Below are positions 17,850 to 36,991 of a DNA stretch of 64,000 bases, one piece after another. Below the pieces are notes generated by a model, which worked only from the letters and a program-made list of their open reading frames with translations, ran no database searches and was not told where the DNA came from. The stretch covers positions 2,852,001 through 2,916,000 of the forward strand of contig CP089275.1 of assembly GCA_023920165.1 (NCBI GenBank), in the 5' to 3' direction. Source of the DNA: Curvularia clavata. Taxonomy: Eukaryota. The translations under genes and the position numbers were made by a program. How positions within the stretch are numbered: the stretch's first letter is position 1; every line of letters starts with the position of its first letter.

Positions 17850-18352
17850 GTACTATCAGGGCGGCGGGCACGCGCTTGGTACAGCATGACGAGTAATGTA
17901 GCTTGTATTGTTTGATAATCATGTATCGATAGAGACAAATTCAGATAGCAGAGTAGAGTCCAACCACGTGTCGAGTCAACTGGCTGGATAGCTAGCATAT
18001 CCTGGGTTACTGTAAATATTACACGGGTAACTCGGCCATGCCAATGTAAATATCTTCGTGGCTGTCGCTACTGTGCTTATTATGTCTTCTCCGGTACCTC
18101 ATACGCTATTGCAGCTGCATGCAACCTGGACCCAGTGAATCATACCACACGCACCACAACCAACGCACCACTTCTTTCCAGTTGCTCGTGCTCATTCCCA
18201 TGTCCCGCCTTGGCTCAGACGCATTGGTGTTCGTCCCACCACGGCTGCTGCAGCGCACCGATTTTCCCGCCCACCACCACCACACCCAAAAACTCAACTC
18301 CACGCCCACGACGCAAAAAACAACACGATAACGCAGAAAACAGCAAATATAT

Positions 18353-18372
18353 TGACGCGAGCGAGATTCGAA
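18353..18372 (-). pseudogene. Isolated tRNA 3' fragment (T-loop, 3' T-stem, 3' acceptor strand, discriminator A); left border of the island
   Basis: Minus strand reads TTCGAAT CTCGC TCGCGTC A, then a T-rich trailer (about 18288-18352) similar to the trailer of the intact tRNA at 24197-24280. No 5' tRNA half is adjacent. Confidence 0.7.
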
Positions 18373-18726
18373 ATCTATGAGATGAAATGTAGAAAGTGCT
18401 GTACTCAGCCCAGCCCAGGAGTGCGCGCGTTGTGGATCTGTCTTACTTTGCCGTGAGACAAGGCTAAACATACAAAGTAGTTTACAGTGCACATAATTCT
18501 CAGCTATGATGGGAACTTGAAGTTGAATATTACGTAGAGCGATTAATCACCACCGTCTTGTGTGTATGGGAAGTGACTGGAATCTGCTTGTTTGCTGGTG
18601 TGCTCGCGAGAGTATTGATGCTTTGTTTTATCCAGGTAAGCCTTCTCTTGAACATTAGCGACGAAACAAAATCCAACAACTCAACTAGCAGATTCTCTGC
18701 AAAGTCGTCGAGTCGCGCATGACAGG

Positions 18727-19584
18727 ATGCCAAGAAGAGTCAGTGATAGCGACAGCGAAGATGAGATTCCCATCCCCATCGGGCCAGCCACAGAAGCAGC
18801 ATATCGTTGCTTGTTCCCTTTTCGAAATGTACTGCTCCACACACGACTTCATGGCTGCTCTAAAATGCTGGTAGTATGCCCCCAAGAGTGCGATTCGGTT
18901 GTTAAAACACTCAGAGACATTATTCGATGCAGCGCAACCGGCTCTGGAGGCAGTCTGTTAGCCGTATACCACGAACCATCAACATTGCCGACGGTTGACA
19001 CGATTCGCAAGAAGCTTGGCCCACAAATTGGAATTTCTAGTCTCGACGCCGTCCTTGTCTTTGGATATGAGAATGCGCAGCTTGGTGTGACTGAGCTGAA
19101 GATTAAGCGTTGGATAGACGGCCTTGCCGATTTAGTACGGTCAGAATACCGCCCGATGGAGGGACAAAGATACCTTTCTCAGATTGAGCGTTTTAGAGGG
19201 CTCCTTTTCGTACAAATGGCGCGTCTGCCTCGTGAACTCTGGCAGCATGCCGCAAGGCGATATCATGGCCTAGTGCATAAAATGGGTCTTCGCCTAGACT
19301 CTGTCAACTCGCTCCGTGGTTCAAATCTGTTTGACATTCGCATGACGGCCATGCGCCACAAAAACCTGGCTCAAAGTCTTGCCAGGATACTAGATGGACA
19401 TCACGAGAGATTCATTGGGTATCTTAGAAAGCATGGTCAGACCCTAAAGCCAACATTTCTCGGCCGTGGGAGGAAGCTTATCGAGGACGGTGACGCCATG
19501 GTTGGTATCTTCATCCCTGATGAAAGCGCAGCCAGTGCAGAGACTTGGTGGGATTTGGTTGAACCAGTGCCGATAAGGAATTGA
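18727..19584 (+). CDS. Hypothetical protein (285 aa), possibly a degenerate Rossmann/methyltransferase-like fold
   Basis: Uninterrupted ATG ORF. Alternating strand/helix pattern (SLDAVLVFG...LADLVR...GLLFVQ). The fold call is weak. Confidence 0.55.
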   Translation: MPRRVSDSDSEDEIPIPIGPATEAAYRCLFPFRNVLLHTRLHGCSKMLVVCPQECDSVVKTLRDIIRCSATGSGGSLLAVYHEPSTLPTVDTIRKKLGPQIGISSLDAVLVFGYENAQLGVTELKIKRWIDGLADLVRSEYRPMEGQRYLSQIERFRGLLFVQMARLPRELWQHAARRYHGLVHKMGLRLDSVNSLRGSNLFDIRMTAMRHKNLAQSLARILDGHHERFIGYLRKHGQTLKPTFLGRGRKLIEDGDAMVGIFIPDESAASAETWWDLVEPVPIRN

Positions 19585-19632
19585 AGAAGAATGTATATTA
19601 CTTTGTATAAGACTGCCATAGATATTCCGTGT

Positions 19633-21762
19633 TCAAGGTATTGCGTCTTCTTCCTGATTGTCGACATCAACAAAAGGCATCGGCTCAGCGAACATGCGTG
19701 CGTGTTTTTCAGCCAGACGTTGGTGCAAAGCCTGTATGGTAACCCGAAAGTTGCTAGGCCGGCGATTGTAATTACAGGGGTGCGTGAAATGGTTAATGCC
19801 TGCAAACTTGTCAAGCAAAACCCAAAGTCCACTCCATGCATCGCTTCGATTGTCTAATATCCTTGGGCCGCCCGAGCCTACTATGTAGTCGGCTGGGTTG
19901 AACCCGGTGTGTATCAGTTCAGCAAGCAGAGGCACCCGTTCTTCAAAGTCCGCATCCTTTTTGAGTTTACGGTTGGAGGTATACAACTCTTGTTGCGCAT
20001 GCGTTGGACTAATGTCGCTTGTTGGTATAACGAGCAGAGGACTATATAGACCTAGCCCGTCTTGGTTGAAAATGTCAAATATCAGCAGCCGGTCTTGAGG
20101 ACTTTGATTGAGTCTCTGGAATTCCGCGGTTGTAAGCCTCGGCCCACGAGACGTGCCCTCTTGGCTGCGAGAATATAGGTGTATTGGTACGACGGGAGTG
20201 TTGGGAGGCAGCTGGGTGATGGTGCAAGGAGGTGTGTTGCTTGCGAGGAACGCATCTTTTTGGCTCTCAGTCCACCGGTACCGACAGTAAGCCAAGTCTC
20301 CAAAAGGATGCCCACGAGACAGTACTATGAGAAGACCAGAACGACGAACAGCACACTGGGCTGTGATGGTGTAGAACAGTCGGTTGGTGAAATGGTCTAG
20401 CTGGGATGTCGGCGGAGCTGCAATTGCATCTTTGGGCTCATCTTCAGACTTTTTGAAAAGGTTTTGAGAGCGTCGTCGGGGCCTATGATGAATTTGGCGG
20501 GGGTTTGGAGTAGTTTGTATAATGTTGTACACCTCCTTCACCCAATCTCCCGAGTCATCCAGAGCGATCCGATAAGGCTTGAAGTCTTCTCGATCAAAAC
20601 TAGCATCCTTGGCTTCTGTCGTGTAGAATTCATCTGGCAGTACACTTTCAGGTAAAAAGAAGAATTGTGTCCACGCCAGTTTCTGTCGGTCTTGGTAGTC
20701 GAATTGATACAGGAGATAATCAAACCTAGCCCGTATTGTTAAGCAGCCTGTTTTTTTTTGTAGAGACGACAAGTCTTACCGTTCGTAGTCATTGAAGTAG
20801 TAGTTTACCTCGCCGTTTCGACCATTTCGAGCAATAGCCACTTTGGCCAGTGGCGAAGCAGGCGAGCGGTATTTCGCATCAATCTTGTATTGAACAAATA
20901 ATTGTCGGCGCTGGTTGTGACTTTTTGAGTCTGGCACCAAAAGCTTGAAGTCGGCAAGGTGCGGTTGTAGCCACATGAAGTCAAAGTCCATGGGTATGCC
21001 ATGGAGCCACTTTGCTGCGCGTATGCCTTTCCAAAATTGTACAAGTCCTCTAAACGAAGTAAAGTGCTGGGAACTCTCTTCTGGCATGAGTCCGTCATTG
21101 TCGTGTTCAACAGATGGGATCCAGTCATGAAACGTCACCCGAGTCCAGGGATTGCTGTAAGCGCCTTGTCCTTGCGCGCATCGTTGGATACGTGCGAGCG
21201 CTTCTGGGAGGAGTCGGATTGGCATTCGATACGGGCTGTTGCATGGGCTGAGCGAGTCGTACGCTGAAGGTGGCAAACGCGGCTTCCGTGAAATGTTCAC
21301 GGCAACGTTGCGCTTCTCATTGTTGTCGAGCAAAGTCCCGGCGCGGTAGTTTGGGATCAGCTCTACGTAATCGGGATTAGCAGCGCATATGCCAATATAA
21401 AATGCCACTCGATTTTGCTGCTTCACCGAGGTTTTGTATATCTGGTCCTCGGCCTTGCCTGATATCTTGCTCTTTGCATCAAACAGAACCAGGCGCCGTT
21501 CAGAGTGTTTAGGCCCATGGCGATATCTGCGCACATGCTCATTGAGCTGCCAGAATCGCTCACCAAAGGTTCCTATTGGTGGCGTAGTATCGGTGGTTGC
21601 AAAGATTGCACCATCCGCAGGTGCAAACTCAAAGGACCGGATAACAAAGGGACACTCGAAGAGGACCGCAAATAGTTCAGCTTCGAATCGTGCGCCAGAA
21701 CGCCCGGTAATAAAAGAGGAAATTTGTGAAAGAGGTTGACAGTCGTACTCGGTAGGCATCAT
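19633..21762 (-). CDS. Island paralog A: ~691 aa protein with tandem PD-(D/E)XK-like (restriction-endonuclease-fold) motifs
   Basis: ORFs 20776-21885 and 19633-20772 join in frame via a 54-nt GTAAGA...CTTAAC...TAG intron (20726-20779). Motifs SGARFEAE / PADG / LFDAK and QPHLADF / FVQYK. Collinear with the 25254-27281 protein. Confidence 0.7.
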
Positions 21763-21935
21763 GATTTTGATACGCGTTGGCAGTATACAGTGAGGTAGGG
21801 TAGCAGTGTTGAAAAAGATGGGTGAAAACAGGCTGCCACGAATCACTGTTACACACGTGCTAGCACAACAAGCAAGGTAACACAAGGATCAATATTTCTC
21901 TATACGCGTTGGCTATGGTACGTTCTGCTAATCCT

Positions 21936-22718
21936 CTAGGTATTCCAAAAGTAATGTGAGATGCGTAAGAACCAGCTTATGGTTGGTCGAGGGCGCTCAA
22001 ATGGAGCCCGAGGTGAAGACGATTCTACAACTGGCGCATCTTGTCGTCGCTTGTGATGGCCCCCTGAGATTGCTGCACTCGACTGTCGTCTTTTCCTATC
22101 AGATGGCGCGACAGGCGGTTGGATGGTTAAACGGTATGCTGATAGGCAGGCATGGTACTCGCTGGTGGTGTTTGGTAGAAGAATCTTGAATTTGATTCCG
22201 GGTTCTTTGCCGATCCGGATCGTCATCGGTGTAGGGACCTTGAGCGTGTCGTTTGGAGCAACCACCTGTACATCTTCCTGGAAGTGAGACATGACATAAA
22301 GGCCTTGAGAGCATGTAGATCTCAGTTGGAGATGGGGATCATGATCATTGATGAACAAGATAAAGTGGTGTGGTGCTACTCCCTCGGACGAGGGCAGTAT
22401 ATAGTCACTTGATCGAGACGTACCAAAGGACAGGCAGTGGCGTCCTGCGACGGCTCCAAAGGTGAATCGGACAAGCCTGGACTTTGAAATGACCTTGCCA
22501 TCTTTGGTGCATTCAGTACTCAATCTCACGTACCGCATGTTGGGCAGTAGCAGTGTCGATGAGTGTGCACACGGAGACAGTGGCACCAACTCTGCAAAGA
22601 AGGGGAGGTGGGTAGAGGATGACATTGGTGCCTGGTAGAGTTCAGCAACTCCAAGGGCTTTTATTGCACTAATTTCATGTCTCAATTGTCTAGAGTGGAA
22701 ATTCAGAGTGTCTCGCAT
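21936..22718 (-). CDS. FHA-like domain protein with basic NLS-like tail (start uncertain)
   Basis: LSFGTSRSSDYILPSSEGVAPHHFILF...LRSTCSQGLYV follows FHA spacing, but the G-R, S-x-x-H and N-G residues are altered. RKRR and KRR occur near the C-terminus. Confidence 0.6.
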   Translation of the reverse strand: MRDTLNFHSRQLRHEISAIKALGVAELYQAPMSSSTHLPFFAELVPLSPCAHSSTLLLPNMRYVRLSTECTKDGKVISKSRLVRFTFGAVAGRHCLSFGTSRSSDYILPSSEGVAPHHFILFINDHDPHLQLRSTCSQGLYVMSHFQEDVQVVAPNDTLKVPTPMTIRIGKEPGIKFKILLPNTTSEYHACLSAYRLTIQPPVAPSDRKRRQSSAAISGGHHKRRQDAPVVESSSPRAPFERPRPTISWFLRISHYFWNT

Positions 22719-22776
22719 GCGCTTTGTATGTTTTTAAAATGTAAGACAAGCACAAATGTCGGCATCTGGCATTCCC

Positions 22777-23738
22777 TCATTGTTCGTCCGCTTGATCTGA
22801 TGCCTTGGCTCGCGACGGCAATCGATGTACGCGGACATCCAGCCTCGACTGGGGCTCGGAAGAATCAAAGCCCAAGTCAATACCCAGCTCTGGTTGTGAT
22901 GGTCGCGGTAGCAACCAAAGGAGCTGCCCACAGGTCATACTTGACGGCGTCGTCGCAGGATGGCAAGCAGCTATAACGGCGTCATAGAGGTGTTCGAGGG
23001 TCGGTTGCTCGAATCGTCCCAGCCGCTCATCTTTGGAACCGCCATCCCAAATTCCACGTGGCTGGCCAAGCCGCTGCGCAGAATCAACGCCTGTACGCTT
23101 GCGAGGAGGGCGGCCAATAATAGCGCCAAGATCTGCCGTTTTGCCAAAGTATAGCGGAGCTGCGCGAAGTATAATGAACGACGCCTGCTCTGTTGAGTAG
23201 AGTGGATATCTACAGTCTGACGCAACTTGTATGCAGTATAGCGGCGTGGCCTCTGGAGGCGGGTTGAGTAAAAAGTCGCACGCCATAAAGCGCGATCGGT
23301 GGGGCGATTGGAAGTAGTCGGTCTGGGCAGACTCGGTCCATGTATAACGCATAAATACGAGAGAAGGAACCGATGCCCTATGGGATCGTGAGCAACGACC
23401 AGGCCAGTTGATCCATGTGTATACCTCAGGCTGTCGGCCGCAGGGCCACGATTCTTTGGATCAAACATCTGCTTATTCCAGCTGTTCCGACTCGGTAGAA
23501 ACATGAAGAATCCAGCGCCTCGCAACACCGCAATCTCGTTCAAGGCTAGCGCGTCAATCTCGTTGGGGAGCAACGGCCGATCGTTGGCGCCATCATGGGT
23601 TCTGTCGCGGACTTGCTGCCGGATATGACTGCTAAGCTCTTCTCGCCAAAAGTACCGCTGCGAAGTAGGAATCTCTCGTAGCCTGAGCAGTGTCTTGGCG
23701 CCTGATGCCTTGCTGACAGGATCGTCCGCAGTCTCCAT
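22777..23738 (-). CDS. Island paralog B: shorter protein related to the C-terminal module of paralogs A and C
   Basis: A 47-nt GTATAC...GCTCAC...TAG intron (23378-23424) joins ORFs 22971-23816 and 22777-23352 in frame. AVLRGAGFFMFL...FMRYTWTESAQ matches AVRRSGLLIVL...YCRYRWTESQK in paralog A. Confidence 0.6.
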
Positions 23739-24102
23739 ACCGCGATGCTGGTGGGGTGATGGGGGTAGGTCGAAGCTACGCAAACCTACAGTCTCGGCCC
23801 CGCACCCCAACACCACTCCAGACTATCCGGCCTCTAAAGTATCCAATCGCAGCTGTTTTCTCCAAGAATTTATACGTATAGTGCCATAATACTATAGAAA
23901 ACTGCGTACAAATTTTAAAGGACAAGTATAGTGTAGTGGCAGCTTTTTGAATTTTGGTGTTGTAATCGCTGTCAGACTGAGGCCCAAGCTTACACCCATT
24001 TATCCTGTAATGTTGAGGCTGTAATACGCTGACTGCTTTGGAAATTTCGCTATCTATAGGAGATTTGATTTTCAAACTTAGTAAATGTATTGTTCTTCCC
24101 CC

Positions 24103-24196
24103 GACATTGTGGCCGAGTGGTCTAAGGCGGTAGATTTAAGCTTTGCTGAGATCTCTACTCCAGAAATGGGCACGCGTTCGAACCGCGTCAATGTCA
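24103..24196 (+). tRNA. tRNA-Leu (anticodon UAA), intact, with a 12-nt intron
   Basis: Acceptor GACATTG/CAATGTC, A-box TGGCCGAGTGG, anticodon stem GTAGA/TCTAC, loop TT-TAA-G, intron CTTTGCTGAGAT, variable arm CCA-GAAA-TGG, T-arm ACGCG-TTCGAAC-CGCGT, discriminator A. Confidence 0.93.
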
Positions 24197-24201
24197 ATAT
24201 C

Positions 24202-24219
24202 TTTTGCTACTTTTTTTTT
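24202..24219 (+). terminator. RNA polymerase III terminator (T-runs) of the tRNA-Leu
   Basis: TTTT and then a T9 run directly 3' of the tRNA. Confidence 0.7.
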
Positions 24220-25253
24220 GGCGTTGTTTTGGCGTTGTTGTGGTGTTTTTTGCGTCGTGGTGGGCGGGAGTTGAGTTTTTCGATACACACCCAACACCCA
24301 ACCAATGAAAGCCCAGACGAGCATCAACGAACACGATATAGTGCGGAGACGCGCCGCCTGCAAGTATCAAACGATTCACTTCATGTTTTACCTGCAGTTG
24401 GACTTCATCATTCGGGTTTCCATATCGTATGCCGCGTGCCTTTCTGCACCATAGCATCTTCACGAAATCTCGCCGCCGCACATGCGAGTCTACGTGTTAG
24501 TCGTACCAACACGGGAACTTCCAAGCGATGCTTTTGTCTCGGCGGGGCTGCAAAACGGCTGCAAACATGCGTCGTGGATGTGTTTGACCGCTCCGTCCCA
24601 TGTTGGCCTCAGCATTTTCTCGGTTTGCATGTATTCCTTGAAAATTATCTTCTTATACAGAGTATTTTTGAAAGACGTAGTCAATCATAAACACTAGACG
24701 GTCTCGTTGCCTGTTTTTGCTGGCCTTGGCAGTGAGGCTGAAACCACCAGAACAGGACTATCAAGCAGGAAGTGATCTGTACACAAACAGGATAACCTGC
24801 ATATGCAAAGGAGTTTCGGCTATGTGCTGCTTACACAACCTTAGACTATTGGTCTGGAACTGCATGCATATCACTATAGCGGCGTTGCATGATACGCAGT
24901 CTTGGTCTAGCCTGGCTGTGCTTGGCAATTGAAGCGCTTGACGGAAGCATGCTTCGTGATGGTAGGGACCAAAGCTTTCCAATCCGTGACTGGCCTGGAC
25001 AATTCAAACTTGTTGGTCTTAGCGTTTCTCAAGCAGATGCAAGAACCTTCTGGTGATCGAACAGTGGTGGTCTTCTAAGTCCTTTGGTTTTAATAGCTCT
25101 GGAACTCTGCAAAGTAACTTCAAGCTCAAATTCAACTTCAACTTTAATCTCAACCTTTCCACGCTTTTTTTAAGCCTTTCGAGTACAAACCTGCCAGTCA
25201 TATTAGCTTATACTTCCTAGTACTAACTTTGATAGAAAGACGCATCAGCTGCC

Positions 25254-27281
25254 ATGACACCTCCAAGCTCAAAAGAAGTAAAGCCAAAAGCCGCGGTTGG
25301 TCGACTCCCTGCCATTAGCGGATGGATCACGGAGTGCAATGCATTCCGTATGCTAGCCGGAGCCTGCATCCAGGGATTCAGGGATCACGGACAGCGGATT
25401 GGCGTGATTAGAGGTACTTTTATGGATATCAAATACGACGAATTTCAAAGTGCTAACTGGGGATCATCAGGGCCGGATTTCAGCGAGCTCGATGGAGGAC
25501 TCATCTTCGATCCGCCAGAGGGATTCCCCATGAACATGGACCCTTCTGCTGTATGGACTTGGGTCAATGAGCATCAGCAAGAGCAGAATCTGCAAACCGT
25601 ACCAATTGACATCAAGCTCAACATCACCGCTCGACAACGTCACCAAATTGCACCCTTGTTTATAGTCGCGCCACCTGGAAATACCAAAATCCTGTGCTTG
25701 CTACCCATCAGGAGCTACACAGACCTATACGCAAATGTCAGATTGGCATACCAGGACTCGTGGGGTGCTGATAAAGACAAGTCGACCAAAACGCATCGAT
25801 TGCGGCCGCGTGAGCCTCTGCACGTCAGCAATATCTTGGCGCCATTTGCGGTACATGAGTGCGACCTCTTTGAAGCACTGCTGAGACTTCGAAATGCGTT
25901 CAACGGAAAATCTCCTTATACCAATCCCTCTAACGGCGTCACATTACGAGGTTGGACGCCGCAAGCACCTGATCCCAACCTTGAAAAGTTGATGATGATA
26001 CAGGGGGAAACGCAAAAGTATTCGGCTGGTATCATCCAAAAGCTGGCTCAGACTCTTCGCTCTCGGACAGAGTGTGATATGGAGCTCTTGTTCAATCTCG
26101 TACAACCCTTGGCATGCGACCTAGTGCTTCGGGACAACGCGTCGTCTACAACGTATCTCATCGAGCACAAGGTGAATGCACTTAGAGAATTTTATTCTGA
26201 CAATGTCTCTCTAAGCCTAAAGCCCGAATGGGCAAAAGAGGAGCATAATTGGCATTTTCTTCTTCACCAATATGGCGATTGGGTCACGATTCACACAAGG
26301 GGAGGACACAAAGCTGGAAGTAATACGCCAGCAGTTCGTGTCAATCTCAAGAGCCCTGGTGCACTATCTACGATTGCTACCACGATACGCCGCCACGGAG
26401 TTTTGGCCAAACAGAGACTTCGAGCCAAGTGGCGATCCTTGGATGTGTACGAGGACAGCCTGTTGGATGAAGAGAGTCAGCCAACAGAGCCAAAGAAGAG
26501 CCAGAGTCAATCCTTGAGGGCAGCCGGGAATGAAATGTTCCGTATAGCATTTTGCGATGCCATCAACAACCAATGTTTCAAGCTAGGAAAACACGCTTGC
26601 ATTCTTCTAGAGGGCAATGCTTGTGGAGACGCAGCAATGATCCGACACGACTGGACAGAGCGCGATCAATCTAGATACAGATCTAGTAGAATCCTGCCAG
26701 TCTCTCTTGTGGATGGTGCGAAATCAGGATCTTCAGAGGCGCTTATGCTAAGATTCATTCCCCACTTCTGGACTCCGGGTACATCGTCTTCGCGAATATT
26801 CGATCCTGCACGCATTAGGATGATCAAGGTACCGCCGTGTCTCGGCCAGGCCTTCGTTTATGTTGCTGCGACAATGAGCTCTCCATCTGCACATCAAGAG
26901 CCTTTTCTTGACAAGGTCATCCTCTTGCCTTCAGGAGATACAGATTGGTTAGCCAAATTCGATGGCTGCAGCACCTGTGATGATGAATCGGAAACGAGAG
27001 ATTGGAAGCCGACCGTTGAGTCAGTTTGCGAAAGTCAGGGTGGGGGTAAGCCTGGGAGCTCGCTCATACAGCTTCCCTTTTTGAACCAGCATGCGCAGCC
27101 ACTCCATCAAGTTTACGATTTCGACGATGGCTCAGTACATGGTCGTCTCGATACCCTTTTGTGTGAGGAAGGCTCACCATATGTCAGCCAAATCTATGGG
27201 CCAAATGGGTTGCTTCAACGGCAATGGAACCACGGCAGTCCGAGAGTACGTAACACCGACTCTCCTGAAATTCGCAAGTAA
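25254..27281 (+). CDS. Island paralog C: 675 aa protein with tandem PD-(D/E)XK-like motifs
   Basis: Single ORF. Motifs SGWITECN / ELDG / PIDIK and QPLACDL / YLIEHK. The block EALLRLRNAFNGKSPYTNP...VTLRGWTP matches EALARIQRCAQGQGAYSNP...VTFHDWIP in paralog A. Confidence 0.75.
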   Translation: MTPPSSKEVKPKAAVGRLPAISGWITECNAFRMLAGACIQGFRDHGQRIGVIRGTFMDIKYDEFQSANWGSSGPDFSELDGGLIFDPPEGFPMNMDPSAVWTWVNEHQQEQNLQTVPIDIKLNITARQRHQIAPLFIVAPPGNTKILCLLPIRSYTDLYANVRLAYQDSWGADKDKSTKTHRLRPREPLHVSNILAPFAVHECDLFEALLRLRNAFNGKSPYTNPSNGVTLRGWTPQAPDPNLEKLMMIQGETQKYSAGIIQKLAQTLRSRTECDMELLFNLVQPLACDLVLRDNASSTTYLIEHKVNALREFYSDNVSLSLKPEWAKEEHNWHFLLHQYGDWVTIHTRGGHKAGSNTPAVRVNLKSPGALSTIATTIRRHGVLAKQRLRAKWRSLDVYEDSLLDEESQPTEPKKSQSQSLRAAGNEMFRIAFCDAINNQCFKLGKHACILLEGNACGDAAMIRHDWTERDQSRYRSSRILPVSLVDGAKSGSSEALMLRFIPHFWTPGTSSSRIFDPARIRMIKVPPCLGQAFVYVAATMSSPSAHQEPFLDKVILLPSGDTDWLAKFDGCSTCDDESETRDWKPTVESVCESQGGGKPGSSLIQLPFLNQHAQPLHQVYDFDDGSVHGRLDTLLCEEGSPYVSQIYGPNGLLQRQWNHGSPRVRNTDSPEIRK

Positions 27282-27342
27282 GTAATCTGAGTGCGGTTGC
27301 TATGATCTCGCATAGCGCTGTTTATTTTACATCGGCCCTGAC

Positions 27343-28017
27343 ATGTACAGCATAATGCGTCGAGTTTTGATGACCCTTCCGCCAAACACACTGCCAATGG
27401 CCAGCAATCGCATTGAGAAAATACTCGATGAAAAGCAAAAGGACGTCATGAAAGAAAAGAGTTGTTCGAAATCTACCGCAAGACCTACGGCCCACTGGGC
27501 CTTGATCTCAGATGATACCTACGGGATGTCATTGCGGAATATCATGGCATTGTCTGGTTTTGCAACGAGCTACACACTGCGCTGCGACCACTGCCAAAAC
27601 GAAGAAGAGTGCCGTTTCTTCCTCCCGGAGATTCTGTACAACTTCAATTCTAGAACTATCTCTTGCGCGCCTTGCTGGATTAAGCAAAAAAAGGTCTGCA
27701 CGTTTCAAGGGATTGCAAATACCCCAGAGCTCGTGGATGAGATTCGTAGCTTTGAATGGTACAGGCACCATGTACCTTGCAACCAGTACTACTCTGATGA
27801 GAAGCAGTGCGACAACCGAGCTGATCTTTGCGAGCGGTATGAGGCTAGTGGTAAGGAATGCGTACGAGAAGCTTGCAAGAATGGGAGCGAGTCCCGCGAC
27901 GACTCGAGTTGTCCCAAGGCCTGCGACAAGGCTCATGAAGATGACGGATATACAAACGTCACTACGATTCCAAGAGGTAAAGGATGCAATGCACGTCTCC
28001 GACTGAAAAGTTCATAA
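27343..28017 (+). CDS. Cys-rich protein with two Zn(II)2Cys6-like clusters, the second degenerate
   Basis: CDHC-x5-C...CAPC-x7-C, then C-x2-Y-x6-C-x6-C-x2-Y-x6-C, plus a further C/H cluster. Confidence 0.6.
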   Translation: MYSIMRRVLMTLPPNTLPMASNRIEKILDEKQKDVMKEKSCSKSTARPTAHWALISDDTYGMSLRNIMALSGFATSYTLRCDHCQNEEECRFFLPEILYNFNSRTISCAPCWIKQKKVCTFQGIANTPELVDEIRSFEWYRHHVPCNQYYSDEKQCDNRADLCERYEASGKECVREACKNGSESRDDSSCPKACDKAHEDDGYTNVTTIPRGKGCNARLRLKSS

Positions 28018-28368
28018 ACACGCTGAGCTGTATCGTAAATGTCATCAGCTCCTGTAGACGTAAGAGGGTAGTGAAGGGGCTTTTTGGGCCTAATCGTTCG
28101 CCTTTATCCGCACTTTGACGACCTTCTCTGGCAGTTTTGGTCCTCTTTCGAGGCGGGTTTTCGATGGTGTCGGGAATGAATTTGGAAACAAGAGCTGCCA
28201 AGACAGCTTTGCAGTCAGGCGGTAGAGATTGCGCGGAGTTTTCCTCAAGCGCCGTGATAAACTAACGTGTTAACATAACGCCAAGTAGATTAGCATTCAT
28301 TGACATACTAGAACGTCTCGAAGCAATGCCTGAAATTTTTCCAGTGCCCTAAGCGGCTCGGTCGCCAT
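27962..28368 (-). CDS. Small hypothetical two-exon protein with NLS-like PPRKRTK
   Basis: ATG at 28368; a GTATGT...TTAG intron (28262-28308) joins in frame to ORF 27962-28201. It overlaps the 3' end of the Zn-cluster ORF. Confidence 0.35.
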
Positions 28369-28759
28369 GTTGGAAGCAAGGCGTCTGAGATGAGGGCTAA
28401 CAGTCCCTCAAGACGGAATTTGTATCATTGCACCCGCAACTGGTTGTAACGAGGTGTCTCAAACACACAAGTCCATGTATAGCTCACAAGACATGTTTGT
28501 TTAGCCATATTTCCGTTTGAGTGGCTGATGAATGTATGGTAGGGGATGTCTTGCCCCACTGTTTCACTCGCTGAAACATCTTTGTCCAGTCATTAGGCCG
28601 TCTGAACCTGTGCGATATAGAAGCGAGTGCCTCGTCTTTTTCTCAGTTCTTTTGCTTTTCCAAAGGCTTCCTCGCCGGCGTTGCATCACCCATTACTGAA
28701 CCAACATCACACACATTTGTTTCAAACGCGTTGTCAAAACTTCTTCTCGGCTTTCTACT

Positions 28760-30841
28760 ATGCCCGAATACAAAGATTCAGAGGCAGCAACCAATGCGAA
28801 AGAATTGCAAAAAGAATCTTTAGCAGCTATTCCGCACCGAAGCGAAACTTGGCAAGAGATGCGAGATCGCATACATCGGCGCTATCATGACCCACTCGTC
28901 AACCCTCGCAATACCAAGTCCTATGGTGGATTCTTTCGAGCTTTGGCAGGAGAGATTTTATCATATGCTCTTGTTTATCTGCTTGTTCCTTGGGCTATAG
29001 ATGAGCTGCTCCTCCGGTTCATTGAAACGACTGACTGTTTGTCGCTCGGAGCGATTGCTTGGGTCAAGGTATTTCGCTATTGGGCACCATACGTTGTTGC
29101 CTTGAAGGCCATGATGGGATTCGCACACAGAATCTTCCAAGGGTAAATACTCTCACATTTCTCAAGTGGTGAACTTGTTCCTGTATTTTACCACCTAGCT
29201 ATATAACGTATCATGAAAGCAATTTACTGACATTGACTTGTTAGAATACCCGATCCGTCCGTGAAACGTGTTCAAGGCACCCTTGGTATCGCGCATCATT
29301 TCGTATATGCCGTGATGACACATGGTCATCAACGTTTGTCTAGAGATGATACAAATGGAGACTTGGATCTAAAGTCTGTCCATAAGGCTTCGGCCAACTA
29401 TGAAATGCAGGTTACGACAGGATTCCAGGAAACAACGGCAATCATCGAAACAAGCGGCAATCTAGAAGCAACTCCATCCCCTATAGGTGGACTAGAGGAC
29501 TTTCCATCTAAAAGTCAGTGCTCAGAATTTGCGGCTCAAGACTGCGTCTTGGGCCACACCGTTACATCGCTATCGACCTGCCACACAAAGGACATTTCCG
29601 TTCTCGCACCAACAAATACCGGTGAGAGTAATGTGATATTCGAGACTGATCAACAATGCGACACGATTGAATGCTCAACTGCAATAGCTCATGATCAGGA
29701 ACACAAGCAGTGCTTAGAGGGGCTAGATGCTACCAAGATTGTCTTATTACCTTTAGATCAGCAGCCTCGTGCAACGCCCGCTCCAACACCGCCCAGCTCC
29801 CCAAAACTTGCTTCAAGCATTGCAGCATGCTGGAAAGAACAGCGACCACCAATGATAGTTGCCGTGCCGCGAATCAATTATATTGCGTGTACAGCCAATG
29901 ACCCGCCAGGAAGGACTTTTGACAGATCCCAGAAACTAGTGACGGTCGGACACAGCACTATAAAGATATGCCAACCGTCTCACTCCAACCAAGTCGTTAG
30001 AGAGTTTCAGTTCCCGCATGTCTTTGATCCTCTGGCAACAAATGACGATGTTTGTTTTTTCGTACGAGAAGCGATTGAGAGAGTTGTATCACACGGAACC
30101 CGATTTAGTATCCTGGCTGATGGCTATTCGGGGACGGGTAAATCGCATACGCTGTTTGAAAGTAACAACTCTATTGCTCGCTTTACTGGAGACATTCTCT
30201 TTACAAAAATGAAACTCGACGAGATTTGGTTTTCAGCGACAGAGGTAGTACACAGTAAAACCCGCGGTATCTACACCAAACCTACGAATCTTGCACTTGC
30301 AAAACCATTCGCTCTTGGGCCTGTAAAGAGAACAATACTGGCTTTCAAAGCAGGTACAGAGGCGTACTCGGTATCTTCCGCCACCCAGCTCCAGACCCTG
30401 ATCGACTACGTTGTGCAGGGTCGGGAAACGTATCCTACCGCATCCAATCAAAATTCGTCAAGGAGCCATCTTATTTGCCATATGCTTGTTCCAGTAGACA
30501 ACAGATATGGTATGATTACACTAGTTGATCTTGCAGGTGCTGAAGATGCCTCTGTTACTGAAGAGGGAAGTATCAGTCATCTTATCAATCAAGGACGATC
30601 AGAGTTCAATACACAGCTCCTCGGCTATGCCAGAAATCCGACCAAGGCGGTTTTTCGTACCGGAGAACTAGCCAAAGCATTGCGTACGGCGTTTCCTCTA
30701 CGCCCTCTAGACACCCCGGCCATGGTCTATCTCCCCCATATTAATCAGGCACAAAGCACAAAGTGTTGTTCGCAACCGCGTCTTGATATGGCGAGGAAGA
30801 TTATGCTCGCTCAAGAGGGTGCCGAAAAGAGGCGCAACTAG
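28760..30841 (+). CDS. Divergent kinesin: N-terminal hydrophobic segments, low-complexity linker, C-terminal motor domain (~659 aa)
   Basis: Intron 29143-29244 joins ORF 28760-29146 to ORF 29261-30841 in frame. Kinesin motifs FQFPHVF, P-loop GYSGTGKS, switch I NQNSSRSH and switch II LVDLAGAE. Confidence 0.8.
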
Positions 30842-31009
30842 GGAAAAGTTGCTATCGTTGAAAGGCGGTTCAAACCGGGTTTCAGTTAAGCACTGCAAAA
30901 GCACATGTAAATGGCAGAAGAAAGCGTTGGAGAACATTTCTTGTCCAGAAAATGTAGGCTACTTGAAAGCTCGGATGGAAACGCATTCTAAATACATTGT
31001 TCCATCTGC

Positions 31010-31996
31010 TCATCTCATGATGGTTTCTCCATCTTCCCACTGCTTTCGATGCGCTTTGGAGCAGAACCACTGCTGAGCGCTGCGTTCCGGTGTCATGTTT
31101 CTCCAGCGATTGCACTTGATGCCATCCGCCGTGACACCAGTGCAAAACTGGAAGTTGACTTCGTCTCGCTCGCTTTCCATCGCCGACTTTTTCTTTTTCT
31201 TTGCAGCTTTTCCAGACACAGGTAATACAACACCGCCAGCAGACAAACTAGAGCTATTGAGCTGTTCACTCTGCTTATCGCGAGTTTTTTCTTTCAACAA
31301 AGCCAGCTCATGGGGCTCATATAAACCGTTCTCAGCCCTAATCTTCTGGGGTGGGGGCACTGTGCGGCCCTCTTGGGACTTAGTGATGGAATGGCGTGTC
31401 GCCGGTGCGACATTCTCCAGAACAAGTGGTTTCCGTATGACATCGTCGGTAACAACCGCATCCTCGTGTGTTGTGTCGCTGGTTTCAACCACTCCAGGAT
31501 TCTTGTTTAGGCCCGACGTACGCCCCGCTATTTTGCTTGAGCTGGCAACTCCACAGCCTTGGTGTTGCTGATTTCGCGCGGCGGGCAGTGGCTCATGTGC
31601 AGCCGACTTCATATCCTCGTTCGTGTCCTGCAGTCTCTCGTTCGCTAATAGCTTGTCATAGCCTGGACCAAAGACCTGGAGCTTGATGTAGCAAGGCGCC
31701 AGATCCATCTGCATCCACACTATTTCTTGAGCCAACATGAAGTTTTGTATCGCGTTTGACGCGGCGGCGCTGGCCATGACGAATGACTTGCTGAGATTGG
31801 TGACGAGAACTCTGCTGCCTTTTGATTGAGCCAGTCGCTGCGCACGTTCATACACGTTGTATAAAACACCTTCGCTGAGATCGAGACTGTTGGAGATGGC
31901 AAGAGCCACATCGTTGGCGCGTGATGTCTCTCTAAAGTACCATACGACTCCGTAAGCCGTAATGGCTGTCAGACACTGTGCGTAGAGATTCGACAT
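31010..31996 (-). CDS. Hypothetical nuclear protein with a C-terminal C-C-C-H zinc-binding motif (may have an upstream exon)
   Basis: 328 aa ORF with poly-K NLS and FCTGVTADGIKC...WFCSKAH. Confidence 0.6.
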   Translation of the reverse strand: MSNLYAQCLTAITAYGVVWYFRETSRANDVALAISNSLDLSEGVLYNVYERAQRLAQSKGSRVLVTNLSKSFVMASAAASNAIQNFMLAQEIVWMQMDLAPCYIKLQVFGPGYDKLLANERLQDTNEDMKSAAHEPLPAARNQQHQGCGVASSSKIAGRTSGLNKNPGVVETSDTTHEDAVVTDDVIRKPLVLENVAPATRHSITKSQEGRTVPPPQKIRAENGLYEPHELALLKEKTRDKQSEQLNSSSLSAGGVVLPVSGKAAKKKKKSAMESERDEVNFQFCTGVTADGIKCNRWRNMTPERSAQQWFCSKAHRKQWEDGETIMR

Positions 31997-32518
31997 GCTG
32001 AGGTGGCGAGGGCGGTACTTGAGATATCGTTGTAGACTCTAAATGTGTCAGCAATGTATTTGGTCAGAGTGTTATATAGCACTCGCAGCTCACTAGGAAA
32101 CAATTTGGATTGTGGCATATAGCGCAATTACTTCTCAAGTAAAACGAATACATTTTATAGCTATAGAACCTTTTGGCACTTTGATTAGATTGACCTGAAT
32201 GACCAAACTGAAACCGTCTTACATGACTCTGCATGACTCAAATATCTGCAGCCACATTCACATAGTGTACGTCCAGGGCGCAGTCGATTGCCGGGATTCA
32301 CGTCATAGGGCCGTCACAAACGTCCAAGTCTCTCTGATCTGAAAGGAAATGCGAGTTTCTTTTTGATACAATACATGCATGAGTTGTGCCCGCTCAAGTC
32401 GCGTTCCCTAACTACACCTTCCACACGGTTAAAAAAAAACAATACCCATAGTCAACAGCGCTGGCTTCACCAAGACATGTGTTGGGAAGATGTGTAATCA
32501 CGCCGCCAACTAAACCAC

Positions 32519-33220
32519 CTATAGCAAACGAGGAAGCCTCGGAGAAAGAATCATATACCCTATACTCATATTGTCAGACGTACAAGGTACTAGAAAATCA
32601 AGTAATAAACTTACAAAAATCCTTCGAGCAGTCGAAACAACAAGGCATGCAATAAAGACGACTGGATATCCAATCAACCAGAGAAACAGTTTGATCCATG
32701 GAAGAATTGCAGAGAAAACCCCAAACATCAGAAGAGCGAAGATGGTGTCTGCTACAGATGAGTCACAGAGCATGTGGAGATATGCCCGCAGCTGCACACC
32801 TGCCTGGACGGTAGTCTGGCCAATCTGATAGCCTTGCATCAAAACCATCGGGGTTTGGCGCAGGAGATCAATCATGGCTGTGGTGACAGCAGCTGCGTAA
32901 TTAGCCACACTCTTCGGCAAGGCATCCAGAGATCTGAGCAATGCATCCATGGCCTGTTTTGCACTTAGCACAGCTAATTTGAGATCAAAATGAGGATTTG
33001 GATGGCTTACATTGCTATCCGCGATAGCAGCCCACATGGCCCTGGTAGTAGGACTGATGCTTGGCTGTGGAAGGCGCTCTAGCCAAGCCATTGCATCATC
33101 TGTCAGGTCGAGATGATCGTCCATGTATTGTAAGATGCTGCCTTTGGAGTGCTCCAAGGCAAGTACGAGGGCAAGGGATCCCGTAAAGGTCATGAAGACA
33201 GTGACCATTGTTGAAGGCAT
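32519..33220 (-). CDS. Hypothetical membrane protein (signal-like N-terminus, C-terminal hydrophobic helices)
   Basis: 233 aa ORF with hydrophobic stretches at both ends. Confidence 0.55.
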   Translation of the reverse strand: MPSTMVTVFMTFTGSLALVLALEHSKGSILQYMDDHLDLTDDAMAWLERLPQPSISPTTRAMWAAIADSNVSHPNPHFDLKLAVLSAKQAMDALLRSLDALPKSVANYAAAVTTAMIDLLRQTPMVLMQGYQIGQTTVQAGVQLRAYLHMLCDSSVADTIFALLMFGVFSAILPWIKLFLWLIGYPVVFIACLVVSTARRIFVSLLLDFLVPCTSDNMSIGYMILSPRLPRLL

Positions 33221-33731
33221 GTCGACGAATGCTGATAGGAGTTGGATGGAATGTCGGATTCTCTATGGGCTGGAAATTGATGGAAAATGGTGCTGTATGC
33301 CAAGAATCCAACTAAAGTATTACTGGAAATACAAAGAGAAACGTGTGTAGAGTGCAAGGAGTATGCATAACTTGGATAAATAACTATTCTCACTATACGT
33401 TTACAGCTAGTGAAGCATAATGTCTTGCACGCAAACAAAAGGGGCTAACATCTGCAGGTCTCATATTCTATGCCGACAGCCACTATCACTACGTGTGAGA
33501 TCGCCTTGTTTCGCTGCTAGTAGCCGCTTCAGCACAGCCCAAGTAACAAACCCAAAAAAGCGTGCGATGAATGAGCCATTGACTGCGGCTAACAAGGCCA
33601 AGTCCCACGCAATGACTGTAGTATCCAGGTGTCAGTTAGCTTTGTCCGTGCTACAAGAGTAGTAGAAACTTACACGCATGTGTCTCATGCACTGCCTGCT
33701 GTGCAGACGATGGGCAGTGTCTCAGCACGAC

Positions 33732-34148
33732 TCAGTACCTTGCGTTGTCCGCGCTTCGACCGCGCCCCACGTCAGATTGGGCCACAGAATCAGCGCCTCC
33801 TTTGGAAACCTCTTGGTGATTTGAGGGGACTTTGACGAATGCAACAATGGCTTCTTTCCATTGGTAGATCCATATCTGGAGGTTTCGCAACGGATCGAGC
33901 TCTTCGCGTGTGTCGGCAATCGCTGGGCCCGGATCGTCGCCCAAGTCTCGTGCATCTGCCTCTTTGACAAATTCCACAGCAATGTCATGGAGTATCTGGA
34001 ACTTGGCGCGAAGCGTCTCGTAATCGTTTCTGAGCTTTGCCGCCTCTGCGTGGAGTAATTCTGTCTGATTTGCTGGTTCCGCATCTGTCCACCCTGGGCG
34101 CACGGAACTGGGCGTCCATTGCGCTTCGTCGTTCTCAGACATTGTCAC
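33732..34148 (-). CDS. Hypothetical coiled-coil protein (possibly with further 3' exons to about 33460)
   Basis: 138 aa ORF with heptad-like LLHAEAAKLRNDYETLRAKFQIL; splice-like signals downstream. Confidence 0.45.
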   Translation of the reverse strand: MTMSENDEAQWTPSSVRPGWTDAEPANQTELLHAEAAKLRNDYETLRAKFQILHDIAVEFVKEADARDLGDDPGPAIADTREELDPLRNLQIWIYQWKEAIVAFVKVPSNHQEVSKGGADSVAQSDVGRGRSADNARY

Positions 34149-34324
34149 AATTGGCTTGTTATTCGAATCAAGGGAAATTACACGGTTTTCTGGATGAATC
34201 GAGAGAGGCGAGATCTTAAATCCCTGAATTGCTACATAGCGTCAGCATCCAGGCTAGGGTGCATCTCTGTATAGCAGGGTTCTCAAAATCGCTTGTTACA
34301 CTACATCTATCGAACGTCACATCC

Positions 34325-35485
34325 ATGCCTGCACCGCATCCAGATGAGATTCGGAGAAGGCTTCAAGCTGCGAGGGCGCTTGACCACAGGCCCAGTGCCG
34401 TGCGATCGGCCCTATCCGAGCACCGCCGTCACATTCTAGCAAGAAGCGAAGATATCGGTATCCCAACCAAGATGTTTGAACAGACACTCACTCCAGTTGA
34501 CAGCCCGTCTATTAAACTTGACCCCTACCGAGCCACTCATACTTCTCTCCAAGCAACAAATGTGTCTGTGGATCCCGGCTCCCTTCAGTACCCGTTACTT
34601 CCCAAAAGCCTGCAGCAAGAACTCGCCCTGCCAGAAGCCGATGGCCCTGGTAAACTTTCCAGCCCGCCACAGCTAGGTCACGTCTCATCCGATCATCCTA
34701 GGCATCTTTCCATTAGATCCCTAATCACAATTGTCACAGCTCTTATTCTTTGTACACTTTACTCGACTACACGCTTCCAAAAGTCTACTACGATCCCGGA
34801 TAGTTGGAAGGCTGAGCGTCTGGAAGGGTACATCAATGCTGTTACGGAAATTGATGTGCATACCCTTGGTGTGGACATTATGGGCCTAGTTCAAATTGCC
34901 AACAGTTCAATTGCACGCGCGGCTAGATCCGAACATGACGCTGCATTACACCTGCACTCTAGCCTCATACGCCCACTTCAGAAAGCGGACCCCCATAGAG
35001 GTCAGCTTAGAGCGCTCATGCTACTCGCAGAGCACCTACAAGAGTTGGATAGACGCGTCAACGTTACGGTTGAGACGCTGGATGCTACAAAAGTACTCGT
35101 AGATGACGCGCTAAATGTCACCCAGAAGCGCTATGACGAGCAAGTTACTTCACGATTACTATATGTGCGCGAAGCTGCCAACCCTAGAAAGGCTTCACCC
35201 GTACTGCAACGAACTGAACAAAATCTGGAGGTATATGCAATGCGCATTGCTGAGCTTGCAAACGGGACTAGGTCAATAAGTGCATTAAGCGGAATCATTC
35301 ATGACTCTAGTAGGGAGTGGAAACAATACCAACAAGAGTTGCAATGGATGTATGCGGCTGTTTGTGCGTGGCGGGAAGCTGAAAGGCTTGCGACGATGCA
35401 GGAGTACCGTGAATTAGTGAGGCGCTTTTGTACTAGTGCATTGAACGTACTAGGCGCTTTTGATGTTCCTTTGTGTAGATCCTGA
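34325..35485 (+). CDS. Hypothetical single-pass membrane protein with long C-terminal coiled-coil region
   Basis: ATG at 34325 (MPAPHPDEIRR). One hydrophobic helix, LITIVTALILCTLY, followed by a helical region. Confidence 0.65.
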   Translation: MPAPHPDEIRRRLQAARALDHRPSAVRSALSEHRRHILARSEDIGIPTKMFEQTLTPVDSPSIKLDPYRATHTSLQATNVSVDPGSLQYPLLPKSLQQELALPEADGPGKLSSPPQLGHVSSDHPRHLSIRSLITIVTALILCTLYSTTRFQKSTTIPDSWKAERLEGYINAVTEIDVHTLGVDIMGLVQIANSSIARAARSEHDAALHLHSSLIRPLQKADPHRGQLRALMLLAEHLQELDRRVNVTVETLDATKVLVDDALNVTQKRYDEQVTSRLLYVREAANPRKASPVLQRTEQNLEVYAMRIAELANGTRSISALSGIIHDSSREWKQYQQELQWMYAAVCAWREAERLATMQEYRELVRRFCTSALNVLGAFDVPLCRS

Positions 35486-36015
35486 TCAGGCTTTGGGCGA
35501 TTGAACGTAGATTCTTACAACTATAGATGATGTTAATGAGGAACTACTAAAAAGATATTTTAAAAGCCAAGTGATGAGAAAAACATGATTGATAAAGTAG
35601 CTGCATAAACAGAGAACGAGAGTGCACAGCAGGGCATGTGCGCGAAACAACATAATGTTCGTCGTGCGACCTAAAAATTACAATCACCAACGAGATGAGC
35701 AAGTCGGCATACTGAGGATTGTGGCTTTCACCACACGGATATGCAACATTAGCATACAGACAATCAACACGTTCATGTATCAGCAGACCCACTTGGATGC
35801 AGCGTGCTCTCACCAAGCACTCATGTCACCAACACACAAACTCACATGTTGTGGACATGGTCAAACATGGAGCAAGGTCTTTGTGTCTAGAAGACGTAGA
35901 ATATTCTCGGTATCTGTTCGCGTCTTGATTTAGGCTCTTGTTATACCTTATAATATGCCTCTTCTCCTGCTTTTCATGTTACTTTGATAACATCAGCGAT
36001 CAAGGACAACCAACC

Positions 36016-36991
36016 ATGAAGCGCGAAAAGGCGACTGCTACGGACCAGGATTGGCAGGATTGGCACAACAGCATCGACATTGAACGGGAGATTCTCGTGA
36101 TATACAAAGATGCTGTAGTGGACATGTTCAGTGCGAGTCCTCACATCCAATGGGACAACGTCGTTGAAAGGCTTCGGGACTTGGAGTCTCCACTCTCACT
36201 GTTCGACGGACACGAAGCGCTGCAAAAGCACGTTGAGACTACTAATATCAGGACAATACCAGCTATTGCACTGATTGCAGTCGCACTCAACAACCATGCA
36301 GTATTTCACAACCAGCCATGTAAGATTTGCCCAATCTTTTATTTCGTTGCTCACGCTAACATCCTGCATAGTCAAGTTTTGCTGGAGCAATGTCTCGCCC
36401 TCCTCAGGCGAAGAAAGCCTTTTCATGACATTTGGGGCGTGGTCGGCCAAAGAGACGGAAGACTGGAAATCTGCCAGTCCAGGATTTCGTGCAAAGTGGT
36501 GCACTGTGTGGGAGAGCGCGATCCGCCCTAGGTATGAAGCCGAGTTGTCCAAATGAGCTGCCGCTAACGAGATATGCAGCTCACGAGCAATGCGGATCCC
36601 TTATACGAGGAAAAAAACCATGGACTTCCTTCACAATACAGTCACCACAATGGACATTGGAAAGCTTACTTGGGCCGAAAGCTGTATTTCTAAACGCGGA
36701 CAAGTTCATCCTGGAGAGCTTGTCTTCATACCAGGATACAAGAACAATGCGCATAGGGGACAGTGCATGACGAGTGGGGACTTGCACGGAGTCCTGCGCG
36801 CGTATTTCCTAGAATCACGTTCCCACAAGTCATGGCATACCCTCAAGCTCCAAGCTCTCACAGCCATCCAAAACCAAAGGAGATCTGGCAAGCAGCATAC
36901 GGCGACGTTTTGGAGGGATGTGAGGGACGTGGTAGCCGGATCAGAAAAGGTCTCGCCCATGGTGAAGAAGCCGGTGGATGATCAGTCCTAG
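36016..36991 (+). CDS. Hypothetical three-exon protein with a cupin/JmjC-like motif
   Basis: Canonical introns 36320-36371 and 36532-36579 join three ORFs in frame. Contains VHPGELVFIPGYKNNAH. Confidence 0.6.

Follow-up and report, generated by a model that had tools for sequence, protein, structure and literature searches.

A 64-kb stretch of DNA from the Pleosporales fungus Curvularia clavata (contig CP089275.1; this whole stretch is called the window, and positions are counted from its first letter) carries three neighbouring genes, A, B and C, with a tRNA-Leu gene between B and C. We consider it fairly probable that A and C are three-domain proteins of the PD-(D/E)XK type that act as single-chain nucleases with two active sites, that B is a possible partner, and that the tRNA-Leu gene is an ordinary neighbour. 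We base the fold assignment on three independent segments of C that converge on one nuclease superfamily and on motifs that fall at the canonical strands. An earlier sequence-only reading had proposed nuclease folds for these genes together with a function built around the tRNA gene. Its structural inference was largely right, while the tRNA-based biological story is unsupported.

Gene C (25254..28017, plus strand) consists of the exons 25254-25413, 25471-27277 and 27351-28017, separated by introns of 57 and 73 nucleotides (nt). It encodes 877 amino acids, and the spliced sequence is the exact translation of the C. clavata hypothetical protein P0001 (877 residues), its best homolog. The introns of C and B were placed by exact identity to deposited protein models, and that of A by its GT..AG borders and homology. 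The sequence-only reading had ended C at a stop codon at 27281. As this codon lies inside the 73-nt intron 2, the gene runs on to 28017, and a helical and Cys-rich tail of 220 residues had been missed.

We modelled C with AlphaFold2, using P0001 and a 50-sequence alignment. The model has a predicted local distance difference test score (pLDDT) of 79.6 and a predicted template modelling score (pTM) of 0.78, with 383 of 877 residues at a pLDDT of at least 90. It contains three similar tandem modules with the element order alpha-beta-beta-(alpha)-beta-beta-beta-alpha, which includes an alpha-beta-beta-beta core. Module 1 (25293..25910, residues 14-200, interrupted by intron 1) begins with a helix at 14-45, followed by strands at 49-53, 62-66 and 95-102. 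The corresponding elements are helix 233-251 and strands 257-261, 271-275 and 280-288 in module 2 (26001..26414, residues 231-368), and helix 401-425 and strands 427-432, 441-447 and 476-483 in module 3 (26508..27179, residues 400-623). This strand order fits the alpha-beta-beta-beta-alpha-beta nuclease core that had been anticipated for the locus.

The C model was compared with 48,161 non-redundant PDB chains in an exhaustive VIA-align search that is independent of Foldseek. Thirteen chains reach Z>=5, and all 13 are nucleases of the restriction-endonuclease fold. The matches cover residues 8-200, 231-365 and 388-623, that is, all three modules. Module 2 is the best-matching domain (Z 7.7, root-mean-square deviation 3.7 over 111 residues against I-Ssp6803I; Z 6.8 against Hjc), module 3 aligns with BsaWI (Z 6.0, 138 residues), and module 1 with SgrAI (Z 5.9, 142 residues) and D212 (Z 5.7). 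When the Foldseek list was rescored with VIA-align, the highest values were those of module 2 with nuclease domains of SPARDA (Z 8.3 and 8.2). The Foldseek list itself is topped by I-Ssp6803I (E 0.08), SPARDA, Hjc, DUF820 and DrdV. The modules have no mutual sequence similarity (hhalign E 0.05-0.24); they are repeats of fold, not of sequence.

The residues expected at a nuclease active site are conserved in two of the three modules. Counted over aligned residues of the family alignment, module 1 carries E27 (19/22; 25332-25334), D61 (32/32; 25491-25493), D100 (42/43; 25608-25610) and K102 (44/44; 25614-25616). In module 2, D270 (26118-26120) is found in 49 of 49 sequences, E285 (26163-26165) in 48 of 50, with Q in the other two, and K287 (26169-26171) in all 50. 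D61 and D270 directly precede strand 2 of their own modules, and the DxK of module 1 and the ExK of module 2 lie inside strand 3. In the predicted structure this placement is the canonical PD-(D/E)XK geometry, and modules 1 and 2 of C look catalytically intact. The acidic and lysine residues picked out by the sequence-only reading (E..D..DxK and D..ExK) are thus the near-invariant ones, located where strand 2 begins and inside strand 3. Strand 3 of module 3 is hydrophobic, with no catalytic-type residues; this degenerate domain lacks ExK and has near-invariant N419 and W448 (26652-26654), the latter in a HDWTE motif. The earlier proposal of two or three tandem nuclease-fold domains, some of them inactive, therefore agrees with the three modelled modules, the uniform structural matches, the motifs of modules 1 and 2 and the degeneration of module 3.

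Several results weigh against the assignment. As the Z values are just 5-8, the support for the fold is only moderate, and the VIA tool carries the caution that models with no clear relative typically reach a best Z of 7-8. Foldseek returned nothing at E<=0.001 for the C model against the PDB, the best value being 0.08. The fold model covers C of the A/C pair, and that the acidic and lysine residues lie close together in space is deduced from the predicted secondary structure. Searches by sequence are uniformly empty: Pfam gave no family for five window pieces at E<=1 and, at E<=0.01, none above score cut-offs for 34 family members, which leaves them with no link to a known PD-(D/E)XK family (the sub-cut-off matches are zf-CCCH_2 in P0021 and DUF2861 in P0055 only). 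NCBIfam gave no family for five proteins at E<=0.1, PADLOC gave nothing meaningful for the same number (only DpdF for B, E 0.067), and PDB sequence and profile searches with C, the family, B and the open reading frame (ORF) X described below found nothing below E 0.5.

These points raise the possibility that the fold assignment is an artefact, in which a common alpha/beta arrangement in a medium-confidence model gathers nuclease matches and the D..ExK pattern arises by chance. All Z values are below 8.5, all Foldseek E values exceed 0.05, and a sequence-profile link is missing, as would be expected in that case. Chance would, however, have to make three segments retrieve one superfamily independently among 48,161 chains and place invariant motifs in two of them exactly at strands 2 and 3, within a model whose pTM and number of confidently predicted residues are as given above. 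We regard such an artefact as very unlikely.

Other structural searches with C added little. The viral BFVD library gave nothing at E<=0.001. The ESM Atlas model of P0001 is poor (pLDDT 0.36) and has no feature matches; all but one of its structural rows have a TM score below 0.5, the exception being a 128-residue phage cluster, partly PDDEXK_5, with a TM score of 0.64 by that row. The tandem nuclease domains of Wolbachia CidB (7fiv_B) were considered as a relative and dropped, as Foldseek gave only E 1.0 and a probability of 0.02.

It is also possible for the fold to be right and the protein not to be a DNA nuclease. A and C might process RNA, or be non-catalytic nucleic-acid-binding or scaffold proteins in which the motif-like residues are structural. 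Inactive or RNA-directed members of the fold (a Prp8 domain and tRNA-splicing endonuclease subunits) occur among the listed matches, module 3 and B are clearly degenerate, and Q replaces the glutamate of module 2 in A, P0071 and P0026 (QYK instead of EHK in A-type proteins), which also counts against the reading as two-site nucleases. Two full motif sets that are near-invariant across Dothideomycete orders are nevertheless expected of active sites and not of scaffolds, and we consider this explanation improbable.

Gene A (19633..21762, minus strand) had been recognised as a spliced gene, and its structure holds: the exons 21762-20780 and 20725-19633 flank a 54-nt GT..AG intron (20779-20726) and encode 691 residues. 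The product is a divergent (A-type) member of the putative triple nuclease-fold family. On the minus strand, the module 1 motifs are RFEAE (21690-21676), PADG (21621-21610) and FDAK (21483-21472), those of module 2 are LADF (20958-20947) and VQYK (20895-20884; Q replaces E), and that of module 3 is YRWTE (20280-20266).

The homology of A and C, proposed earlier from matching blocks, is supported in agreement by BLASTP of the single exons, by phmmer through an ortholog of A, and by the family profile. Exon 1 of A matches the middle region of C with E 3e-5 and 23% identity, and exon 2 matches in the WTE region with E 9e-4. Searching 1.84 billion cluster representatives with C, phmmer found 73 proteins at E<=1e-3, one of which, a 6,824-residue fish titin homolog, is spurious and was rejected. 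The Alternaria ortholog of A, P0071, is found by C in this search with a library-wide E of 7.8e-5 and is matched by A with E 1.6e-167; against C-type members, A reaches E values down to 7e-8 in a small database. When the whole window was translated in six frames and searched with a hidden Markov model (HMM) of the 50-sequence family, only C and both exons of A were detected (2.4e-36 and 3.3e-14 for the A exons).

The divergence between the two is remote, with 97 identical residues in 550 aligned positions (17.6%) in the profile-anchored alignment. Seven of the eight matching blocks fall in the same columns of this alignment. The eighth, FDYLLYQFD/WHFLLHQYGD, had been matched with a shift: W314-H315 of C, which is near-invariant, pairs with NYYF of A, about 8 residues upstream. 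In FastTree and IQ-TREE trees alike, C groups beside a Bipolaris maydis protein, and A and P0071 are set off from the other 49 rows as a clade of their own on a long branch. The duplication must then be old and does not belong to a local series, which removes the basis for the idea that the paralogs record successive target specificities. A and C are true but ancient paralogs.

Named family members, all annotated as hypothetical, come from Curvularia, Bipolaris, Alternaria, Pyrenochaeta, Aaosphaeria, Amniculicola, Parastagonospora, Aureobasidium, Hortaea and a Bogoriella metagenome-assembled genome. All are Dothideomycetes, and Bipolaris genomes contain several copies each. In a literature search that did not extend to supplements and subscription journals, six family locus tags were not mentioned, and no description of such a family in Dothideomycetes was found among the entries listed. 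The family seems to be undescribed and has so far been seen in Dothideomycetes only.

The tail of C (27583..27936, plus strand, residues 734-851) contains a CDHC cluster, a CX2CX6CX6CX2CX6C-type motif (27778-27861) and, downstream of it, a C..C..C..H motif. The CX2CX6CX6CX2CX6C spacing is complete in four of five full tails compared (P0002, P0012, P0018 and P0021). In the window's copy of C, two of the six positions hold Tyr and not Cys (CNQY.. and CERY..), and the metal site may be degenerating in Curvularia. The fungal Zn2Cys6 binuclear cluster has the spacing CX2CX6CX5-12CX2CX6-8C. An assignment to Zn_clus (PF00172) was rejected, as Pfam matches none of the tail motifs in P0001 or in the tail ORF and two Cys are changed to Tyr; the similarity is a resemblance of pattern.

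Gene B (22777..23738, minus strand) has the exons 23738-23425 and 23377-22777 and a 47-nt intron (23424-23378). The coordinates given earlier are exact, as the spliced exons translate precisely to the C. clavata hypothetical protein P0097 (304 residues), the locus tag of which neighbours that of P0001. B belongs to a separate small family of 14 proteins from Parastagonospora (two copies), Bipolaris, Neocucurbitaria and metagenomes. It had been described as a paralog of A and C that shares their last module. The first claim is not borne out: the A/C family HMM has no match in the B region at E<=10, tblastn of A against this region gives E 6.4 over 19 residues, and the profile-profile comparison with the A/C family gives E 0.013 and a probability of 3%. 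Of the second, a weak resemblance of fold and a collinear but non-significant profile alignment remain, without significant sequence similarity (with module 3, hhalign gives a probability of 3-11%; with 25 residues of module 2, it gives 28%). The YTWTE motif of B is MRYTW[ST] across its family and FAWSA in the Alternaria counterpart.

The AlphaFold2 model of B (pLDDT 71.4, pTM 0.73) has the strand order of the C modules. Its top VIA-align rows are PBP-related factor A (Z 5.5), which we take to be RecU, Bse634I (5.4), I-Ssp6803I (5.4), Cfr10I (5.2) and Hjc (5.0); Foldseek, here too on the opposing side, gave nothing at E<=0.001 (best 0.28). The 23 invariant columns of the B family include no acidic residue and no lysine, and B is therefore predicted to be inactive, a single, catalytically dead nuclease-like domain.

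ORF X (21936..22718, minus strand, 260 residues) lies between B and A. It is kept in the same position in the Alternaria infectoria model P0080 (residues 266-368, tblastn E 2e-9), a single 1100-residue model that joins B, ORF X and A and is probably an annotation fusion of three genes. ORF X has no Pfam match at E<=1 and no PDB sequence match, and an FHA-like domain suspected from its sequence pattern was dropped after these searches came back empty.

Genes of the B type recur near A/C-type genes in other fungi, which makes B a possible partner or regulator. In Parastagonospora nodorum the tags are HBH98_172470 (B type) and HBH98_172540 (C type), and in Bipolaris maydis BM1_02267 (B type) and BM1_02275 (C type); the closeness of the genes in these two species is deduced from tag numbering, and so are the distances. 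We also searched metagenomes for related loci with a 20-sequence C-type alignment and obtained ten (L001-L010). They collapse to five near-identical groups, {1,2,4}, {3,7}, {5,6}, {8} and {9,10}, at 96-100% identity, and counts over the ten are not independent since they represent five distinct sequences. In L005 and L006, which come from one organism and are 99.9% identical, the C-like gene has a B-like ORF (E 4e-44) at a distance of about 2.3 kb. The flanks of L001, L003 and L008 contain no B-like ORF, and these make up three of the four distinct metagenomic loci with several kb of flank. This absence counts against a partnership of B with A and C, and residual synteny among related fungi could explain the linkage.

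The only tRNA gene called by ARAGORN in the 64 kb is the tRNA-Leu gene with anticodon TAA (24103..24196, plus strand, 94 nt), located between B and C. It is uninterrupted and followed by a T-run terminator. At gathering thresholds, Rfam reports nothing in 18000-29000, including the tRNA-Leu called by ARAGORN; a tRNA intron may lie behind the missing call.

The sequence-only reading saw in A, B and C homing-type or tRNA-directed endonucleases, or tRNases, that target the adjacent tRNA gene, or the part of a mobile element that provides its mobility or toxin function. I-Ssp6803I is a homing endonuclease that targets a tRNA gene, and it is the best non-redundant structural match of module 2. The position of the tRNA-Leu gene between B and C points the same way, as does a family that is lineage-restricted and multi-copy in Bipolaris. 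None of the ten related metagenomic loci (five distinct sequences, about 47 kb in total) contains a tRNA gene, however, and the tRNA gene in the window is intact. A, B and C are free-standing nuclear genes that have spliceosomal introns of their own and are not themselves carried by an intron or intein. A scan of the ORFs at 14-46 kb revealed no transposase or recombinase and no intron or intein context, and housekeeping genes flank the locus. Structural matches of about the same quality as that to I-Ssp6803I are obtained with Hjc, RecU and restriction enzymes. Neither the association with tRNA genes nor a mobility or toxin function thus finds support; an I-Ssp6803I-like homing endonuclease acting on the tRNA gene was rejected, we hold this explanation as a whole to be extremely improbable, and we judge the tRNA-Leu gene to be an ordinary bystander.

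The window is ordinary fungal nuclear DNA, as judged from ORFs with GT..AG introns and a Pfam survey. The latter identifies a myosin-chitin synthase, IF-2, an MFS transporter, a kinesin-like ORF and SRP68, in addition to PPR, ankyrin/C2H2 and DDB1-type propeller proteins, and places housekeeping genes on both flanks of the A-B-C locus. The region 18700-36600 is dense in ORFs that lack a Pfam match (18727-19584, A, X, B, C, 31010-31996, 32519-33220, 34229-35485 and 35938-36531); no mobile-element domain was found in it, and housekeeping genes lie on either side. About 8 kb downstream of C, the ORF 36013-36324 (plus strand) resembles the C-terminal residues 889-992 of the C-like Bipolaris maydis model P0004 (E 1e-29); either the neighbourhood is conserved in Bipolaris, it would seem, or this is one more fused gene model. 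The kinesin-like ORF at 29261-30841 (plus strand) aligns with the motor profile (327 positions, E 2.9e-21) over positions 29-243 only and may be a divergent or truncated kinesin.

Fungal killer genes offer a further explanation. By analogy with Spok, bacterial toxin-antitoxin systems and restriction systems, the locus could be a selfish or conflict system in which the two-site nuclease is the toxin and B, or a domain of the same chain, the antidote or regulator. The predicted nuclease domains, the way in which B-type genes keep turning up close to A/C-type genes in several fungi, and the fast divergence and lineage restriction of the family fit this logic. As the cited text describes it, Spok consists of an N-terminal coiled coil, one PD-(D/E)XK domain, a Cys cluster and a C-terminal kinase, and killing requires the PD-(D/E)XK domain (PMC6660238). 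Spok, which is known from Podospora and other ascomycetes and offers the nearest analogy among fungi, and the A/C family are both fungal and lineage-patchy, with a predicted PD-(D/E)XK domain and a conserved cysteine cluster. They are set apart by the architecture described there: the A/C family has three nuclease-fold modules, after which the C model continues into a helical and Cys-rich tail, and no kinase domain was detected by Pfam in 34 family members or in the C model, so that membership in the Spok family was rejected. The setting of the locus amid ordinary chromosomal genes and the metagenomic loci that lack a B-like gene also speak against a conflict system, and we think it rather unlikely. 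It is likewise conceivable, if doubtful, that A/C and B constitute a hitherto unrecognised two-gene nuclease system of Dothideomycetes, a single-chain DNA cutter with two active sites and a separately encoded dead subunit that inhibits or directs it. Such a system would be a eukaryotic counterpart of toxin-antidote or restriction-like conflict systems and might act, for instance, in spore killing, in allorecognition or against invading DNA.

In the reading that we favour, with A and C as two-site single-chain nucleases, the sites of modules 1 and 2 would both bind metal and cut phosphodiester bonds. The chain would act as a built-in pseudo-dimer, its two different active sites together able to cleave an asymmetric DNA site on both strands. 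The degenerate module 3, together with the Cys-rich tail of C-type members, could serve in substrate binding or assembly, and B might act as a partner or regulator.

If this is correct, the proteins represent a eukaryotic family that is invisible to curated profile libraries and combines two different conserved restriction-enzyme-type sites with a third, dead copy of the fold in each chain. It would be a new nuclease class in fungi that include major cereal pathogens (Bipolaris, Parastagonospora, Alternaria and Curvularia). The family is a testable candidate for a function in genome conflict or repair, and the neighbouring B provides a concrete partner hypothesis. At present we have a demonstrated system less than a structural annotation, well founded, for an orphan family.

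The structurally matched PD-(D/E)XK proteins are single-domain subunits that form homo-oligomers. With Hjc/RecU, I-Ssp6803I and the SPARDA nuclease domain, its top structural matches, C shares the predicted alpha-beta-beta-beta core in each module, and with the superfamily as a whole the D at the start of strand 2 and the (D/E)xK in strand 3 of modules 1 and 2. The A/C family differs in having no sequence-profile relation to any curated family, in its three such domains on one eukaryotic chain, and in the Cys-rich tail added in C-type members.

A two-site architecture within one chain is otherwise described, in the cited accounts, for a few bacterial Type IIS enzymes: the monomeric BsmI, Mva1269I and BtsCI contain two different active sites per polypeptide (PMC11889245, PMC2831314). 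The likeness to A and C would be one of working principle only, with two catalytic centres that could divide the strands of an asymmetric site between them. There is no sequence or specific structural match between the Type IIS enzymes and the A/C family, the A/C genes are eukaryotic, nuclear and interrupted by introns, and no methyltransferase appears among the ORFs scanned (14-46 kb). BsrDI and BtsI are described as heterodimers of a large and a separately encoded small subunit (PMC1950550), an arrangement of large nuclease and small subunit that A/C and B may parallel.

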